Of a stretch of 64,000 bases of DNA, positions 5,683-53,442 are shown in pieces. This stretch comes from Thermoplasmatota archaeon (GTDB lineage Archaea > Thermoplasmatota > JAKEGO01), in NCBI GenBank assembly GCA_028279595.1, contig JANQNK010000003.1, positions 25,367 through 89,366 on the forward strand, written 5' to 3'. The notes under the pieces were generated by a model. The model did no database searches, was not told where the DNA came from, and saw only the letters and a list, made by a program, of their open reading frames with translations. Position 1 is the stretch's first letter; the number at the start of each line of letters is the position of its first letter. A program made the position numbers and the translations under genes.

Positions 5683-7667
5683 TGGCCAGGCGACGCAAGA
5701 TAACCAGTGACGGCAGCGGTGTATCGAAGAAGGCCAAATCGGAGCCGAAGGCACCGAAGGGAAAACCTAGGACACCTGTAAGGAACATCCCGTGGGGCGC
5801 AATAGCCTTCGCGGTCATCATAGCACTCGTGGTCGCCCTCTTCGTCGCGATGCGTCCCGTCGACGACAGCGACGATGATGACGAGCCAATTGTCCCGACC
5901 GAGCTCGTCCGTTCATACGAGGCTTCCATTTCCACGGATTCCGTGTTCCTCCTGACTGACAGGAACGATACGATCCAGATCGTCGTGAACAACACTGGTG
6001 AACTGGATGACGATTACAACATCACGGTCGACCATTCGGACCAACTGGACATTCACGTATCGGACAGCCTCTCCCTCGACCCCGGAGAGAACGAGACATT
6101 GAACCTCACCGTCGAATCCATCGGCACCTTCGGCCTGTACGAGGTCTACATCAACGTTACCGTGGTCATTCCGGTCGATGAGGCGAACACTACGGCGGAG
6201 AACACCGTCATCGTCAACCGGACCACGCAGGTCCAGCTCGAGTTCTCCGTATACGTCTCCCAGTTCAACCTGGACATCCGCGTCCTCGACGACGCGGAGA
6301 CCGCGGCCCCGGGCGAGTCGGTCATCTTCGTCATCGAGATCGAGAACAACGGCACCCTCGACACTAACGTCGACCTCACCATATCGAAGCTGAACGTGGA
6401 CAACGGCGGAAAGGAAAAATGGACCGGAGCCGCCCAGCTCGATGCGCATCAGCTGGCGATGTTCGAGAACGACATCACCCATGTGCGCATGAACGTCACC
6501 GTTCCACAGAATGCGAACCCGGACGGCGAGGTTGCCCATTTCACGATAACCGCGGAATCGGTGGATGCCATTGCAGCCGGAGTTCCTCTTGCTGTATCGA
6601 CCCAGGTGCATCTGACGATATCCAACATCGGATTCTACGCAACCCCCGACTCCTACGAGAAGGAGGTCCAGGAGGAGCACTGGGTGGAGTTCGATTGCGA
6701 GATACGCAACTCGGGGGGAACTGACGTCTACGTCAAGTACCGGGTGTCCGAGATACCTGCGGATTGGATGCGTGACCTAGATCCCTACCCTGAGGACGGC
6801 TGGTTCCTCGGTGACACTCCAGTCACATTCTCCATCGCTATGAGGCCCGAGAACGTCGATATCGGTGATTTCCACCGCTTCATCGTCGAGATCTACTCCG
6901 ACGACCACAACGAGACGAGCTTCTTCTCCGTCAACGTTACCATAGCCGAACCGAGGTTCGATCTGGTCGCGCAGAGCCAATATGTCCCGATAGACCTCGA
7001 ACCGTTCGAGCGAGGGATCGCGTACGAGCACGAGATAATCATATCCAACCTCGGCCTCCTCGAGTACCAGGTGAACCTGACCCTGGAGCATCCCCCCACG
7101 TGGGACATGGACATCGATCCGGGTTGGATCTGGCTCGAGCAGTATTCAGGCACAGAGTGGGAGACAGCCACCCTCCGTTTCCTGATGCCGACCAACACCT
7201 CGGCCGGTGAGCATCCGTTCCTGGTAGTCGGCGAGGCATGGGGCATCGAGGTGGAGCTGAACCTCATCGCCGTAGTGGAGGAGTACCTGAACGGGACCCT
7301 CCATCTTCCGGCTGTAGTGCCTGAGCTCAACCTCTCCCAACCGCCGATCAACGGTTCCTCCCAGGAGTCCCTCGAATTCGTCATTACCAACACCGGGAAT
7401 TCGGCGGCAACCTTCGAGATCGTCATCGAGAACTACCAGGACCTTGACCTTCCAGGATGGAAGATCAATCTCACATCGGGACAGCACGAGGGCGACGAAC
7501 GCATCGTCATAACGATCAATCCCGGGAAGAACAAATCGGTATTCCTGAATGCCAAGGTCAATGATGAGCACGAGGAGGAGGTACTGCACCCGAGCCTATC
7601 ATTCCTGGTGCACCGGGACCCCATATGGCAGATCGACCGTATGGACGCGATCGTTCAGATCCAGTAG
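5683..7667 (+). CDS. Signal-anchored extracellular glycoprotein with repeated CARDB/Ig-like beta domains
   Basis: The start is probably the internal ATG at 5683 (MARRRKI). A basic N-terminus is followed by one TM helix (GAIAFAVIIALVVALFVAM). There are more than 25 N-x-S/T sequons (NDT, NNT, NIT, NET, NLT, NVT...) and repeated beta-rich segments. There is no C-terminal anchor. Confidence 0.5.
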
Positions 7668-7983
7668 GACTGTTCAACCTGGCGACACTCCCGACGGGAC
7701 CGGGTGCTTAGGACCTCATTGATAGGTAATTCTAACACCCGGGCCAGTCGGGAGCACGGTAGCTAGAAGGAATGAAGAGGAGTGCTCCCGACGGGATTCC
7801 GGTGGACACACCGTGCCCACCTCTCCCTTAACTCTATCCAATCAGTTGAATAACGTTCAGGGATCGAACTTCGTTCGAATCCCGTATGGCCCCGACGGGA
7901 CCGGTGTATTAAGAACCCAAAGATCTGTCAGATTAATCACCGGGCCAGTCGGGAGCACATTAGCTAGAGGATAATGAAAGGAG

Positions 7984-8058
7984 TGCTCCCGACGGGATTC
8001 GAACCCGTGTCCCCAGCTCGAAAGGCTGGAATGATTGGCCGGGCTACACTACGGGAGC
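7984..8058 (-). tRNA. tRNA-Glu (anticodon TTC)
   Basis: The reverse complement folds as a cloverleaf. The acceptor stem is GCTCCCG/CGGGAGC, the anticodon stem-loop is CCAGC-CTTTCGA-GCTGG, the T-arm is ACGGG-TTCGAAT-CCCGT, and the discriminator is A. CCA is not encoded. A TATA box (TATATAAA, 8075-8082) lies upstream. Confidence 0.85.
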
Positions 8059-8158
8059 ACGTCGGGGGACACATTCACCAGCCGTATATAAACGTTTTAG
8101 ATGTACAGAACACACGAAATCCTTAAATCGCCTACGGGATATCGCCCAATCCCATTGT

Positions 8159-8245
8159 GTGGGGATAGCCAAGCCTGGTATGGCGATAGCCTGCTAAGCT
8201 ATTGGCGGTTACGCCTCGGGGGTTCAAATCCCCCTCCCCACGCCA
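8159..8245 (+). tRNA. tRNA-Ser (anticodon GCT)
   Basis: The acceptor stem is GTGGGGA/TCCCCAC and the D-arm is GCCA..TGGC. The anticodon stem-loop ATAGC-CTGCTAA-GCTAT gives anticodon GCT. It has a long variable arm (TGGCGGTTACGCCTC) and T-arm GGGGG-TTCAAAT-CCCCC. Discriminator G and CCA are encoded. A TTAAAT box lies ~31 nt upstream. Confidence 0.9.
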
Positions 8246-8270
8246 TTTATCAGTAATCTATTCCGAAGGC

Positions 8271-8398
8271 GTGGGGAGTTGGGTCTCGAACCCCGGAATG
8301 GGCGGGGTTGTTTCGAAATTGATAGCAGTATTCTCAAACCAATTTCGAAACCCAGGTGGCGCGTAGCGTCACCATGGCAAATCCCCCTCCCCACGCCA
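8271..8398 (+). pseudogene. tRNA-Ser-derived tRNA-like element (rearranged paralog, pseudogene or att-site remnant)
   Basis: It shares the 5' GTGGGGA and 3' CAAATCCCCCTCCCCACGCCA termini with tRNA-Ser(GCT). It keeps a GATAGC anticodon-stem remnant and a variable-arm-like hairpin, but no canonical D or T arm can be formed. It contains a perfect 12-bp inverted repeat (8310-8321 / 8340-8351). Confidence 0.4.
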
Positions 8399-8451
8399 TT
8401 TATAATAATATTCAGAAAACGGTTAAGTAAACTCCTGTATCTACCGAAGCG

Positions 8452-9471
8452 ATGGACCTTGTGTTCCTTTCGGTATCGGTCGGTTTCCTTGCGTTCCTTC
8501 TCTACCTCTCGGCATGGTTCGCGGGGTCCGAGACGGCATTGACCCATCTCACGGTCGGACAGGTCGCAGAGATGAAGAGGGACCGGGTCAAAGGCTACAG
8601 GTACATCGAATGGCTGAAGCTCGAGATGGACAGGAGCATCATCGCTATCCTGATCGGTAACAACATCGTGAACATTCTGATGTCTGTGGTGGCTGCCCTG
8701 ATCGCTGACTCACTGTTCTCCACTGTCGGCGTAACCATAGCGGTCGGCGTCATAACTTTCCTCATCATCGTCGTCGCGGACATCACACCGAAGTCGATAG
8801 CGATACTGGACACTGACAGGATAGTCCGGAGGAATGCACGGAGCATCTACTTCATGGTGAGAGCGTTGGGGCCTTTGGTGACCGTCTTCTCGCGATTGTC
8901 GATGGGGCTCATCCGGCTTCGCGGGCACAAACCTCGCAGGAAGAACCTCGTCGTCTCCGAGGAGAGGATAATGGCCCTAGCCACCCTGAGCGAGGAGGAG
9001 GGCGTCATCAAGGAGATCGAGAGGGAGATAATCCACAAGGTGTTCAAGTTCGGGGACAAGCGCGTCGCGGAGGTCATGGTACCGATCTCCGACGTCTTCA
9101 GCATCCCGTCCGGAACATCGCTCGAGGATTCTGCGATCAAGGTCTCGGAGAGCGGCTTCACCCGGGTTCCGGTGGTCAAGGACGGCCGCATCGAGGGGAT
9201 CCTCTACGGAAAGGACCTCCTTGTGGCGGATAGCCAAACCGCCGACGACCTCGCAAGGGAGCCGATGACCGTCGGTGCTGCCGACGAGATAACCGATGTC
9301 TTCGACAGGATGAGATCGAGTCACGTGCACCTGGCCGTCGTGATCGGCAAGGCCGGTGCACAGGTGGGGATAATCACCATGGAGGACATCATCGAGGAGC
9401 TTGTCGGCGAGATCGAGGACGAGTTCTCCGAAGTTCAGAGCGGGAAGACCCCTGCACGAACCGGACAATAA
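8452..9471 (+). CDS. CNNM/CorC/HlyC-family transporter (DUF21 membrane domain plus CBS pair)
   Basis: 339 aa. Four N-terminal TM helices are followed by a tandem CBS region (VAEVMVPISDVFSIP...VHLAVVIGKAGAQVGIITMEDIIEEL). This is the typical CorC/HlyC architecture. Confidence 0.8.
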   Translation: MDLVFLSVSVGFLAFLLYLSAWFAGSETALTHLTVGQVAEMKRDRVKGYRYIEWLKLEMDRSIIAILIGNNIVNILMSVVAALIADSLFSTVGVTIAVGVITFLIIVVADITPKSIAILDTDRIVRRNARSIYFMVRALGPLVTVFSRLSMGLIRLRGHKPRRKNLVVSEERIMALATLSEEEGVIKEIEREIIHKVFKFGDKRVAEVMVPISDVFSIPSGTSLEDSAIKVSESGFTRVPVVKDGRIEGILYGKDLLVADSQTADDLAREPMTVGAADEITDVFDRMRSSHVHLAVVIGKAGAQVGIITMEDIIEELVGEIEDEFSEVQSGKTPARTGQ

Positions 9472-10828: not shown

Positions 10829-11383
10829 TCATTTTGTAACAGCGTCCCACAGGACGTCGAAACTATCTTCCAATTCCTTTTCATTGATCTTCTTTCGTTT
10901 AGAAAATTCCATTATGAAGACCTGATGCAGTGTAAACAGAATATTACCGAACATTTCATACGAATATTCTTTCAGGGTACCCTTCTTCATTTCCTCTTCA
11001 TATGCAACCCGATATTTCTTCAGCATTGCTGCAGATGCCAATTGGCTCTCCTTTGAGATGTATTTGGAATTCAGAAAGAGGGTAAAGAAGAGGTTGTAAT
11101 CCATATTCTTCAAGGACCACTTGGTATATCCTATCCAGAATTTCTTCAGTTTCAATTCAAAATCATCTTCTTCAACGTAATATGAGTTCATATCTTCGAG
11201 CATATCATTTTTAATGTGCATATACGCTGCATTCATCAGGGCTTCCTTTGTCTTATAATGGTAGAATAGCGTTCCTGAGGCTACGCCCGATTCTCTGGTG
11301 ATTTGAGCTGTGGGGGTGTTCTCGAATCCTTGTTCGACGAATAGTCTGATCGCGGTTTCCAGGATTTTCTGTTTATTATTCAT
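10829..11383 (-). CDS. TetR/AcrR-family transcriptional regulator
   Basis: 184 aa. It has an N-terminal HTH (ILETAIRLFVEQGFENTPTAQITRESGVASGTLFYHYKTKEAL). The gene is AT-rich (~38% GC) and lies 36 bp downstream of the hydrolase gene, so it is probably in the same operon. Confidence 0.85.
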   Translation of the reverse strand: MNNKQKILETAIRLFVEQGFENTPTAQITRESGVASGTLFYHYKTKEALMNAAYMHIKNDMLEDMNSYYVEEDDFELKLKKFWIGYTKWSLKNMDYNLFFTLFLNSKYISKESQLASAAMLKKYRVAYEEEMKKGTLKEYSYEMFGNILFTLHQVFIMEFSKRKKINEKELEDSFDVLWDAVTK

Positions 11384-53092: not shown

Positions 53093-53195
53093 AAATGAAG
53101 GGCTCGCGGGGACCGGACGCTTAAGAATGAATTGACCTGTTGGTATAACGTCCGGGCCTAGCGAGCCCGCGTTACCGAGAAGATAATGTGAGGAG

Positions 53196-53269
53196 CGGGC
53201 TCGCGGGGATTTGAACCCCGGTTTGAGGCTCCGGAGGCCCCAGTGATATCCAGGCTACACTACGAGCCC
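53196..53269 (-). tRNA. tRNA-Arg (anticodon CCG)
   Basis: The reverse complement has acceptor GGGCTCG/CGAGCCC, anticodon stem-loop GGGGC-CTCCGGA-GCCTC (anticodon CCG), T-arm CGGGG-TTCAAAT-CCCCG and discriminator G. A TATATATAT box lies at 53291-53299 upstream. Confidence 0.85.
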
Positions 53270-53442
53270 GCAGTGGTCAAGTCCACTCTCTATATATATG
53301 GCTTTTCGGCAGGACGTTCCTTCTGATGGGGATGATCGGCGCTCGCTGACAGCTCTTTCCGTCAGCAACGCGTCTCACCAATGTAGATCCTATTGATGGC
53401 GGATTCATAGGTATTATATGCCGGGTCGGCTGTCATGTCGGC

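Follow-up and report, generated by a model that had tools for sequence, protein, structure and literature searches.

Genes for tRNAs are classic landing sites of integrating elements, whose usual footprint is only a direct repeat, and the identity block of integrase attachment sites in these genes usually starts in the T-loop. The order of segments in an integron cassette is core site, cargo, inverse core, attC loop and core site. To our knowledge, recombination through a single-strand hairpin is so far known from integrons and from phages that exploit Xer. One example is the attP(+) hairpin of the CTX phage, which is used by XerCD, the integrated CTX consisting of a dif hybrid followed by attP2 and attP1 (PMC3089051). 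Short attachment (att) sites are also known at archaeal tRNA genes, such as the 14-nucleotide (nt) att of SNJ2 (PMC8371274). The subject here is a 24-nt motif, TCCTnnCATTATCnTCTnnnTAA, in a 64,000-nt stretch of a Thermoplasmatota archaeon contig (the window, 64 kb at its full length). The motif lies directly 3' of tRNA-Glu and tRNA-Arg and in both places precedes 10-11 nt that are complementary to the tRNA's own 3' end; the original prediction, made from the letters alone, regarded it as a functional element of the tRNA trailer.

The letters of both trailers are exactly those of the original prediction. Rather than standing free as a trailer signal, as had been proposed, the motif is one segment of a repeated 97-nt module, here termed T1, which has direct repeats of the tRNA 3' end at its borders. 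Specifically, it is the conserved, pyrimidine-rich left segment and forms the left edge of T1, and each T1 includes a direct and an inverted copy of the 3' end of its own tRNA. The first segment, X1, is the tRNA 3' end itself, beginning in the T-loop and running to the base that follows the discriminator, and is succeeded by the 24-nt spacer (the motif). Next comes X', a perfect complement of tRNA positions 64/65-74, which continues into a mismatch, a GG:CC pair and another mismatch. A 7-bp inner stem (Y, CCGGnnG, with Y' as its return strand) then encloses a 29-nt loop with a conserved TTA..TC..TC.TAA, and the module closes with X2, a direct copy of tRNA positions 60-72. The layout is direct copy, 24-nt 'cargo', inverted copy, stem-loop, direct copy. 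From X' through X2 the module forms a 69-nt imperfect hairpin, the base of which is made by X' and X2, with z-scores of -2.3 to -5.1 when folded as RNA and of -3.6 to -4.4 when folded as single-stranded DNA, on either strand.

Three copies of T1 occur in the window, two behind tRNA-Glu and one behind tRNA-Arg (Table 1). The two Glu units (7690-7799 and 7891-8000) repeat each other over 110 nt at 75%, and the direct repeat of the Arg unit (53100-53112 = 53197-53209) is identical over 13 nt. Direct copies of the tRNA 3' end flank every unit; the long ones begin in the T-loop, and the Glu fragments measure 18-21 nt. Behind tRNA-Glu the units are arranged serially, the order being tRNA, T1-B, an element resembling a second module family (T2, see below), an 18-nt tRNA fragment and T1-A. 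The motif does not always follow a tRNA: the second Glu module stands behind this 18-nt fragment only (7782-7799). Nor is the motif found at the remaining tRNA gene of the window, tRNA-Ser, which carries the different, lineage-specific module T2.

These features were compared with loci from two related Thermoplasmatota metagenome lineages (L019, L021/L022, a partial L023, L017 and L018), giving six complete T1 copies from three lineages, three of them from the window. The GPN GTPase neighbouring the L019 locus is 83% identical in protein to that of the window; L021 and L022, in which an S-layer-like protein is 67% identical, belong to the lineage whose CNNM protein is 92% identical, and L023 ends inside T1-A. 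In the distant relatives L020 and L024-L028 (CNNM 53%, GPN 54-59% identity), no tRNA was found beside the orthologous genes. T1 lies behind tRNA-Arg in L019, between the same two genes as in the window, and L021/L022 show the arrangement of the window (T1-A, inter-unit element, T1-B, tRNA-Glu, tRNA-Ser), the serial order in L022 being alike.

In the reading preferred here, to which we give about an even chance of being correct, the motif belongs to small, non-coding, hairpin-forming, non-autonomous insertion modules at tRNA 3'-end attachment sites of one Thermoplasmatota lineage, which fall into the two families T1 (at tRNA-Glu and tRNA-Arg) and T2 (at tRNA-Ser and tRNA-Glu). Site-specific insertion is suggested because direct repeats start in the T-loop, units stand serially behind one tRNA, turnover is lineage-specific and the same interiors occur at different tRNAs. 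Additionally, when folded as single-stranded DNA, the hairpins of both families reach significant stability on each of the two strands (z -3.6 to -6.5). The modules would be non-autonomous mini-elements, or what is left of larger, worn-down ones, and a site-specific recombinase whose gene lies elsewhere would have inserted them. A hairpin site folded from a single strand would recombine with a double-stranded target and leave the direct-inverted-direct layout; its stem would rebuild the target duplex and would therefore be tRNA-specific. Either or both of two processes could preserve the match between X' and the tRNA, namely re-insertion and the correction of one arm of the near-palindrome by the other through template switching or gene conversion. 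Both the recombinase's identity and the present-day mobility of T1 are points that we infer.

The interiors of T1 constitute a single family, with ends that belong to the local tRNA, because Glu and Arg spacers are alike at 15-20 of 24 positions and the loops at 15-21 of 29, but X' at merely 4-6 of 11. The six complete copies align without gaps over 115 nt, and the non-orthologous Glu and Arg copies have the same length to the base. The original prediction held the likeness of the two spacers to exceed background, and this was borne out, although not by its own search pattern. With up to three mismatches allowed, the pattern TCCTNNCATTATCNTCTNNNTAA occurs in the window only at 7960-7982 (-) and 53172-53194 (-), against a shuffle expectation of 0.09 matches per window, but it was derived from these same two matches, which leaves room for the view that two AT-poor trailers resemble each other by chance. 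A fairer test compares the spacers of Glu and Arg at one set distance from the end of the tRNA; across four species/tRNA combinations it returned P values from ~1e-4 to 5e-9, and the two trailers are homologous. In line with this result, a covariance model scores all T1 copies at 83-109 bits (those of the window at 102-109), compared with ~10-13 bits at unrelated sites, the next matches (<=25 bits) being the opposite strand of the same T1 loci; it found no copies away from tRNAs in 131 kb (the 64-kb window plus 67 kb from relatives). Together with the gap-free alignment, these values render a chance resemblance practically negligible. The positions needed small corrections: the Glu 24-mer, placed at 7960-7983 by the original prediction, occupies 7959-7982, and the third copy, although present, lies at 7758-7781 rather than at ~7760-7783. 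Both tRNA-Glu and tRNA-Arg are continued by CTCC (7980-7982, 53192-53194), as opposed to the CCA of tRNA-Ser.

The ends of T1 change together with the tRNA. The 3' end of tRNA-Glu in L022 reads CCCGATGGGAGCAC, as against CCCGTCGGGAGCAC, and all six X copies there (X1, X' and X2 of both units) have changed to match, X' tracking the lineage-specific tRNA changes at Glu positions 65/66. Across the six copies, 97% of the cells in the X1:X' pairing are paired, and 6 of the 13 pairs have changed on both sides. These changes are strictly Watson-Crick, with no one-sided or G-U states, a pattern that agrees more closely with an inverted repeat copied as DNA than with an RNA helix under selection. In the X'/Y hairpin, the pairing amounts to 90%, and 7 of 20 pairs have changed on both sides; neither this percentage nor the covariation score was reached in any of 500 shuffles, and registers slid out of place score far lower. 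The changes include two compensatory double ones in the unit-A inner stem, which separate the window from L022 (CCGGGTG/CACCCGG vs CCGGACG/CGTCCGG).

Such pairings invite a second reading, in which T1 is a cis-acting RNA element of the tRNA 3' trailer that works as a three-segment switch. The segment after the motif is indeed complementary to the tRNA's 3' end at both loci, as originally noted: the Glu arms (7945-7958 / 7983-7996) are 93% complementary over 14 nt and the Arg arms (53161-53170 / 53195-53204) 100% over 10 nt, each pair being 24 nt apart. In such a switch, X':X1 pairing would unfold the acceptor stem and block RNase P/Z, CCA addition or charging, and X':X2 pairing would free the tRNA; the outcome would be decided either by a factor bound to the 29-nt loop or by when transcription passes through X2. 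In a simpler version, T1 would be a shared 3'-end stabilizer or terminator for the convergent tRNA and protein genes. In silico, transcripts cut just after X' adopt the X1:X' hairpin and lose the acceptor stem at 4/4 loci, so that the alternative hairpin of the original prediction appears thermodynamically real. The sequestration of the pre-tRNA 3' end that was claimed with it is predicted for truncated transcripts and not for the whole module: once the latter is present X' pairs with X2, and the full Arg transcript restores the cloverleaf together with the module hairpin. The repeated segments of the longer Glu transcript compete among themselves. As modelled, the difference between truncated and full transcripts would amount to the logic of an attenuator.

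Further evidence is consistent with this RNA switch. The X1:X' and X':X2 pairings are both kept with double changes in three lineages, the unit-A inner stem carries the compensatory changes described above, loop and module length are conserved across species, and X' follows the tRNA-Glu changes at positions 65/66. Additionally, no strong oligo-T terminator lies between tRNA and X', and the hairpin stands 8-40 nt past the stop codons of convergent genes; T1-A ends ~20 nt from the stop codon (7667) of a convergent 686-amino-acid (aa) gene, and T1-Arg 8 nt from that of a convergent upstream open reading frame (ORF) which likely encodes the DNA-3-methyladenine glycosylase 'Tag'. However, T1-A has a full set of X1, X' and X2 but only an 18-nt tRNA fragment, so that it has no tRNA to regulate, and the changes of X1:X' are strictly Watson-Crick, which an RNA helix would explain less well. 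The strand signals of the mismatches contradict each other, since G-T pairs favour the tRNA-sense strand in unit A of the window and the opposite strand in L019. Moreover, tRNA-Ser carries an unrelated module that is missing in a sister lineage, and the Ser direct repeats extend 5 nt past the CCA, for which there is no RNA rationale. In agreement with these objections, no Rfam family is matched: with Rfam 15 at the gathering threshold only the three tRNAs pass, and a search of 7500-8500 at E<=10 returned nothing credible. Collectively, this evidence leaves the switch a real but minor chance of being correct. The functional interpretation of the original prediction is partly supported; the features point first to insertion or recombination, a role in processing, termination or regulation may exist, and the 24-nt motif may double as a tRNA terminator region.

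A third reading dispenses with both function and dedicated recombinase and regards the modules as passive by-products of local DNA rearrangement. Replication template switching at T-arm/acceptor palindromes would have triplicated the 3' end in direct-inverted-direct order, ectopic gene conversion via the conserved T-loop would have spread the flanks among tRNA genes, which are rich in hairpins and heavily transcribed, and the arms would stay identical through quasi-palindrome correction. The alternation of tRNA-3'-end copies (direct, inverted, direct, inverted) is consistent with this, as are the palindromic junction GGGAGCTCCC of L022, which has no spacer, the perfect Watson-Crick inverted repeats and the lack of a recombinase gene nearby. 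Units A and B of L022 have an identical X2 plus flank, which points to conversion between units. Passive rearrangement nevertheless seems improbable, given that two discrete families with conserved interior, fixed length and fixed loop recur at different tRNAs and that the interior hairpins show compensatory changes.

Several observations weigh against the insertion-module reading itself. No integrase, transposase or other recombinase was found in the window or beside the modules (Pfam search of ~29 larger ORFs, including the tRNA neighbours), and the inserts (84-130 nt) contain no credible ORF. An autonomous parent was not found either: scans of viral contigs gave 0 matches each for the strict T1 loop and the T2 core and, for the 23-nt motif, 9 matches, none near a tRNA and by a rough estimate about as many as expected by chance, and blastn of the Arg module against phages and plasmids gave no match. 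Likewise, metagenome contigs searched with the 3' half of the spacer plus the inner stem returned only 3 chance matches. A search for more copies in genome contigs with the T-loop plus inner-stem pattern, which matches the window's own copies, gave 3 chance matches, in actinobacteria and with no tRNA; the species of the window is accordingly not among the GTDB representatives. Nor was an empty T1 site seen in the relatives recovered (L019, L021/L022, partial L023); because T1 stands at the same place in all of them, it is old and stable rather than visibly mobile. The T1 loop is identical at 26 of 29 positions between the window and L019, whereas the neighbouring intergenic DNA has indels, a conservation that suggests constraint beyond that of a dead scar. 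A double-stranded circle of 97 bp is physically implausible, and therefore a single-strand or replicative route must be assumed. The reading also gives no account of how a module that moves to another target would obtain an inverted copy specific to the new tRNA. Finally, X2 ends at position 72, with a T after it in 4/6 copies, where a displaced tRNA end with its discriminator should differ. Full-text literature searches returned no description of such modules.

The second family, T2, repeats the T1-like layout with a different sequence at a length of ~130-150 nt. At tRNA-Ser of the window, its direct repeats are perfect over 26 nt (8225-8250 = 8378-8403) and comprise the last 21 nt of the tRNA, including CCA, plus 5 trailer nt, and its inverted copy is perfect over the first 11 nt and 75% matched over 28 nt. 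The unit is predicted to fold into a four-way junction of -70 kcal/mol (z -6.2 as RNA, -6.5 as DNA). It aligns over its full length with the inter-unit element at tRNA-Glu of L022, with which it has in common CGAACCCCG, a long GTTyGGAAA hairpin and the hairpin GrTGrCGCGwAGCGTCAyC; it resembles the window's own inter-unit element less closely. The ends of T2 match the local tRNA in each case. At tRNA-Ser of L022, T2 is absent and a different unit of ~95 nt, bounded by AAATCCCCC... repeats, stands in its place, so that this site is filled and no clean empty site is available; a ~6.5-kb gene block separates tRNA-Ser from the CNNM gene there. Remnants of the tRNA-Ser 3' end also lie beside CNNM in L017 and L018, whose upstream genes differ. 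Because T2 is missing in L022, a different unit occupies the site and remnants accompany differing genes in L017 and L018, sequence comparison argues that insertion at the 3' end of tRNA-Ser is active in this lineage and that T2 probably arrived there recently in the window's branch.

Further observations concern the surroundings of tRNA-Ser. The ~95-nt unit behind tRNA-Ser of the sister lineage represents a third kind (TTCATTTACCAGTGAATTTAC...TACCGGTAAAACCGTGCTG); it is bounded by tRNA-Ser 3'-end fragments (AAATCCCCCTCCCCACG), has no inverted copy and is present another two times beside the CNNM gene (L022 10926-11010; L017 5880-6010; L018 1680-1815). The gene upstream of the CNNM-side remnants encodes a 1308-aa protein in one of L017 and L018 and a peptidase M10 in the other, within the same lineage; L017 and L022 come from the same sample, and L017 vs L018 represents strain-level variation at the site. 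The ~6.5-kb block of L022 encodes a cation efflux protein, FTR1, MntP, a 901-aa protein and a peptidase M10, with no integrase called. In the window, the CCA of tRNA-Ser is encoded (8243-8245) and is present in both copies of the direct repeat; tRNA-Ser of L022 has no encoded CCA (CACGTTCATTT).

Another small element was noticed between tRNA-Arg and the GPN-GTPase gene. It is 36 nt long and consists of CGGCGCTCGC, a variable hairpin and CAACGCG, with one copy in the window (53337-53372, +) and two in L019 (417-452 and 481-516, +). The stems differ yet remain paired (CTGAC/GTCAG, CCGCCC/GGGCGG, CCAGC/GCTGG), 100 shuffles gave an expectation of 0 for the element, and its first 10 nt resemble the antisense of the tRNA-Arg 3' end (GCGGGCTCGC).

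Table 1. Coordinates of the tRNA genes, T1 modules and T2 modules in the window.
Feature	Positions	Strand	Description
tRNA-Glu(ttc/UUC)	7983-8058	-	ARAGORN; Rfam tRNA 59.7 bits
T1-B module	7886-7982	-	directly behind tRNA-Glu
X1 of T1-B			last 15-18 nt of tRNA-Glu (T-loop position ~57 to position 74)
T1-B spacer	7959-7982	-	TCCTTTCATTATCCTCTAGCTAAT
T1-B X'	7948-7958	-	GTGCTCCCGAC; perfect complement of tRNA-Glu 64-74 (last two T-stem bases, acceptor 3' strand, discriminator, next base)
T1-B, rest of hairpin	7888-7947	-	junction TGGC; stem Y CCGGTGA/ACACCGG (7937-7943, 7901-7907); loop 7908-7936
T1-B X2	7888-7900	-	TCCCGTCGGGGCC; degenerate direct copy of tRNA positions 60-72
Inter-unit element	7800-7887	-	degenerate T2-like module; inverted T-arm fragment 7873-7885; hairpin GGTGGGCACGGTGTGTCCACC beside the next tRNA fragment
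X1 of T1-A	7782-7799	-	GAATCCCGTCGGGAGCAC; 18-nt tRNA-Glu 3'-end fragment, no tRNA body
T1-A module	7685-7781	-	spacer TCCTCTTCATTCCTTCTAGCTACC 7758-7781; X' 7747-7757; stem 7736-7742/7700-7706; loop 7707-7735; X2 7687-7699
tRNA-Ser(gct/GCU), CCA encoded	8159-8245	+	ARAGORN; Rfam
T2 at tRNA-Ser	8246-8403	+	23-nt spacer; inverted tRNA-3'-end copy 8268-8295; three hairpins (four-way junction); second direct repeat 8378-8403
tRNA-Arg(ccg/CCG)	53195-53269	-	ARAGORN; Rfam; 3' end is X1 of the Arg module
T1-Arg module	53098-53194	-	spacer TCCTCACATTATCTTCTCGGTAAC 53171-53194; X' 53160-53170; stem CCGGACG/CGTCCGG (53149-53155, 53113-53119); loop 53120-53148
T1-Arg X2	53100-53112	-	TCCCCGCGAGCCC; identical to tRNA positions 60-72

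The three tRNA genes of Table 1 are the only ones in the window, and boxes of the TTTATATA type lie ~27 nt upstream of them. The gene order of the window includes rpoA'-rpoA''-L30e-NusA, and the nearest named relatives of its proteins are from Thermoplasmatota metagenome-assembled genomes; taken with the boxes, this marks the source as an archaeon of that phylum. Among the Logan short-read contigs of the source sample (SRR20820740), both that cover the locus break inside tRNA-Glu (L001 starts at ~8031 and L029 ends at ~8060), because partial tRNA ends are repeated and near-palindromes surround these tRNAs. Repeat loci of this sort are likely to be under-assembled in metagenomes, and the repeated partial tRNA ends could also mislead the annotation of tRNAs and mobile elements. 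Elsewhere in the window (10829-11383, -) and in L001 (4477-5043), two TetR-family genes lie either side of a hydrolase gene, downstream of a saccharopine-dehydrogenase-like gene; on inspection of its translation, the product of 10829-11383 looks Lys/Asn/Ile-rich relative to its neighbours, which hints at a foreign origin.

Several other identities were considered and rejected. A bulge-helix-bulge intron or permuted tRNA does not fit, because the tRNAs are complete without excision and, by eye, the X1:X' and X':X2 helices do not have the 3-4-3 bulge geometry. An ORF that starts at ATG 7974 antisense to tRNA-Glu is not shared by the Arg copy, in which ATG is followed directly by TGA. No C/D-box or H/ACA small RNA pattern is kept across the copies. 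Priming of reverse transcription by a tRNA, with X' resembling a primer binding site, was set aside since X' matches the genomic base after the discriminator and not CCA. An archaeal promoter in the spacer would have to rely on a weak TATA-like ATTAT, unlike the boxes upstream of the tRNAs.

If the modules are insertions, tRNA genes would in this case preserve more than the usual footprint: those of T1 and T2 additionally contain an inverted copy that matches the target exactly and stands at fixed spacing, an interior that is conserved and structured, and ends that change and co-evolve with the tRNA. A bolder proposal, which we consider rather unlikely to hold, is that of a new archaeal element, in which foldback modules would dock on tRNA 3' ends via a single-strand hairpin site and have their ends re-templated by the host tRNA, or, as a variant, of an X1/X'/X2 RNA switch. 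Arrays would then be built behind the tRNA, with target-programmed ends that need no guide RNA; in the variant, the X1/X'/X2 triad would have been co-opted as a switch gating the folding of tRNA-Glu and tRNA-Arg. Should the hairpin-site reading be true, single-strand hairpin recombination would extend to archaeal tRNA targets, with a tRNA-anchored mini-cassette array as its product. Should the RNA reading be true, it would represent an unreported control of tRNA maturation from the 3' trailer.

Compared with known systems, the attenuators and riboswitches that choose between 1:2 and 2:3 pairings resemble T1 in that the pairings of X1, X' and X2 are mutually exclusive and the in-silico outcome depends on the third segment. 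The modules differ in lying 3' of a tRNA and not 5' of an ORF, in that no ligand or leader logic is known for them, and in that one unit has no tRNA. Prokaryotic miniature inverted-repeat transposable elements (MITEs) and foldback elements are likewise small and non-coding, occur in multiple copies and fold to a hairpin through their long terminal inverted repeats. In T1 and T2, however, the outer arm is not constant but equals the adjoining tRNA 3' end, there is no ordinary short target-site duplication, and all copies found in the 131 kb searched are tRNA-linked; of the features by which MITEs are recognized, neither constant terminal inverted repeats nor target-site duplication nor dispersal was found. 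A casposon- or DDE-type MITE was rejected because the ends bounded by the repeats lack terminal inverted repeats.

The att duplications left by tyrosine integrases (SSV/pNOB8/pTN3-type, SNJ2 and the class with crossover in the T-loop) are alike in that the insert lies between direct repeats starting in the T-loop, the tRNA is left intact, partial tRNA 3' ends accumulate in arrays through serial events, and neighbouring strains differ in the insert. Direct repeats that regenerate the tRNA are indeed present at all three tRNAs (13 nt at 100% for Arg, 26 nt at 100% for Ser and 18-21 nt for Glu), whereas no integrase gene was found in or beside an insert of the window. The modules differ further in size, the insert being 84-130 nt without an integrase or any other gene, in the exact inverted att copy at fixed spacing, and in the recurrence of the same interior with different tRNA ends; T1 differs additionally in its conservation at orthologous sites across species.

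Integron attC sites and the attP(+) of CTX resemble the modules in the topology of the product, that is, target copy, cargo, inverted copy, loop and target copy. Moreover, both have an imperfect hairpin with mismatches at fixed places, a stem that rebuilds the target, and short units arrayed behind one anchor. An identity as attC was nevertheless rejected, as the core boxes are missing and the hairpin ends are tRNA-specific (GTGCTCCC..., GCGGGCTC...). By eye, GTTA follows the hairpin on the + strand in 4/6 copies only and has no paired partner, and neither an IntI-type integrase nor an attI was found beside the array in the window. The modules thus lack RYYYAAC/GTTRRRY boxes and IntI and target a tRNA end rather than attI or dif; their stem varies with the target, their cargo measures 24 nt and their host is an archaeon, in which single-strand recombination is something we infer. 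Set beside these systems, the modules look like att-flanked insertions at tRNA genes, which are of a known kind, combined with a tRNA-matched foldback, which is new.

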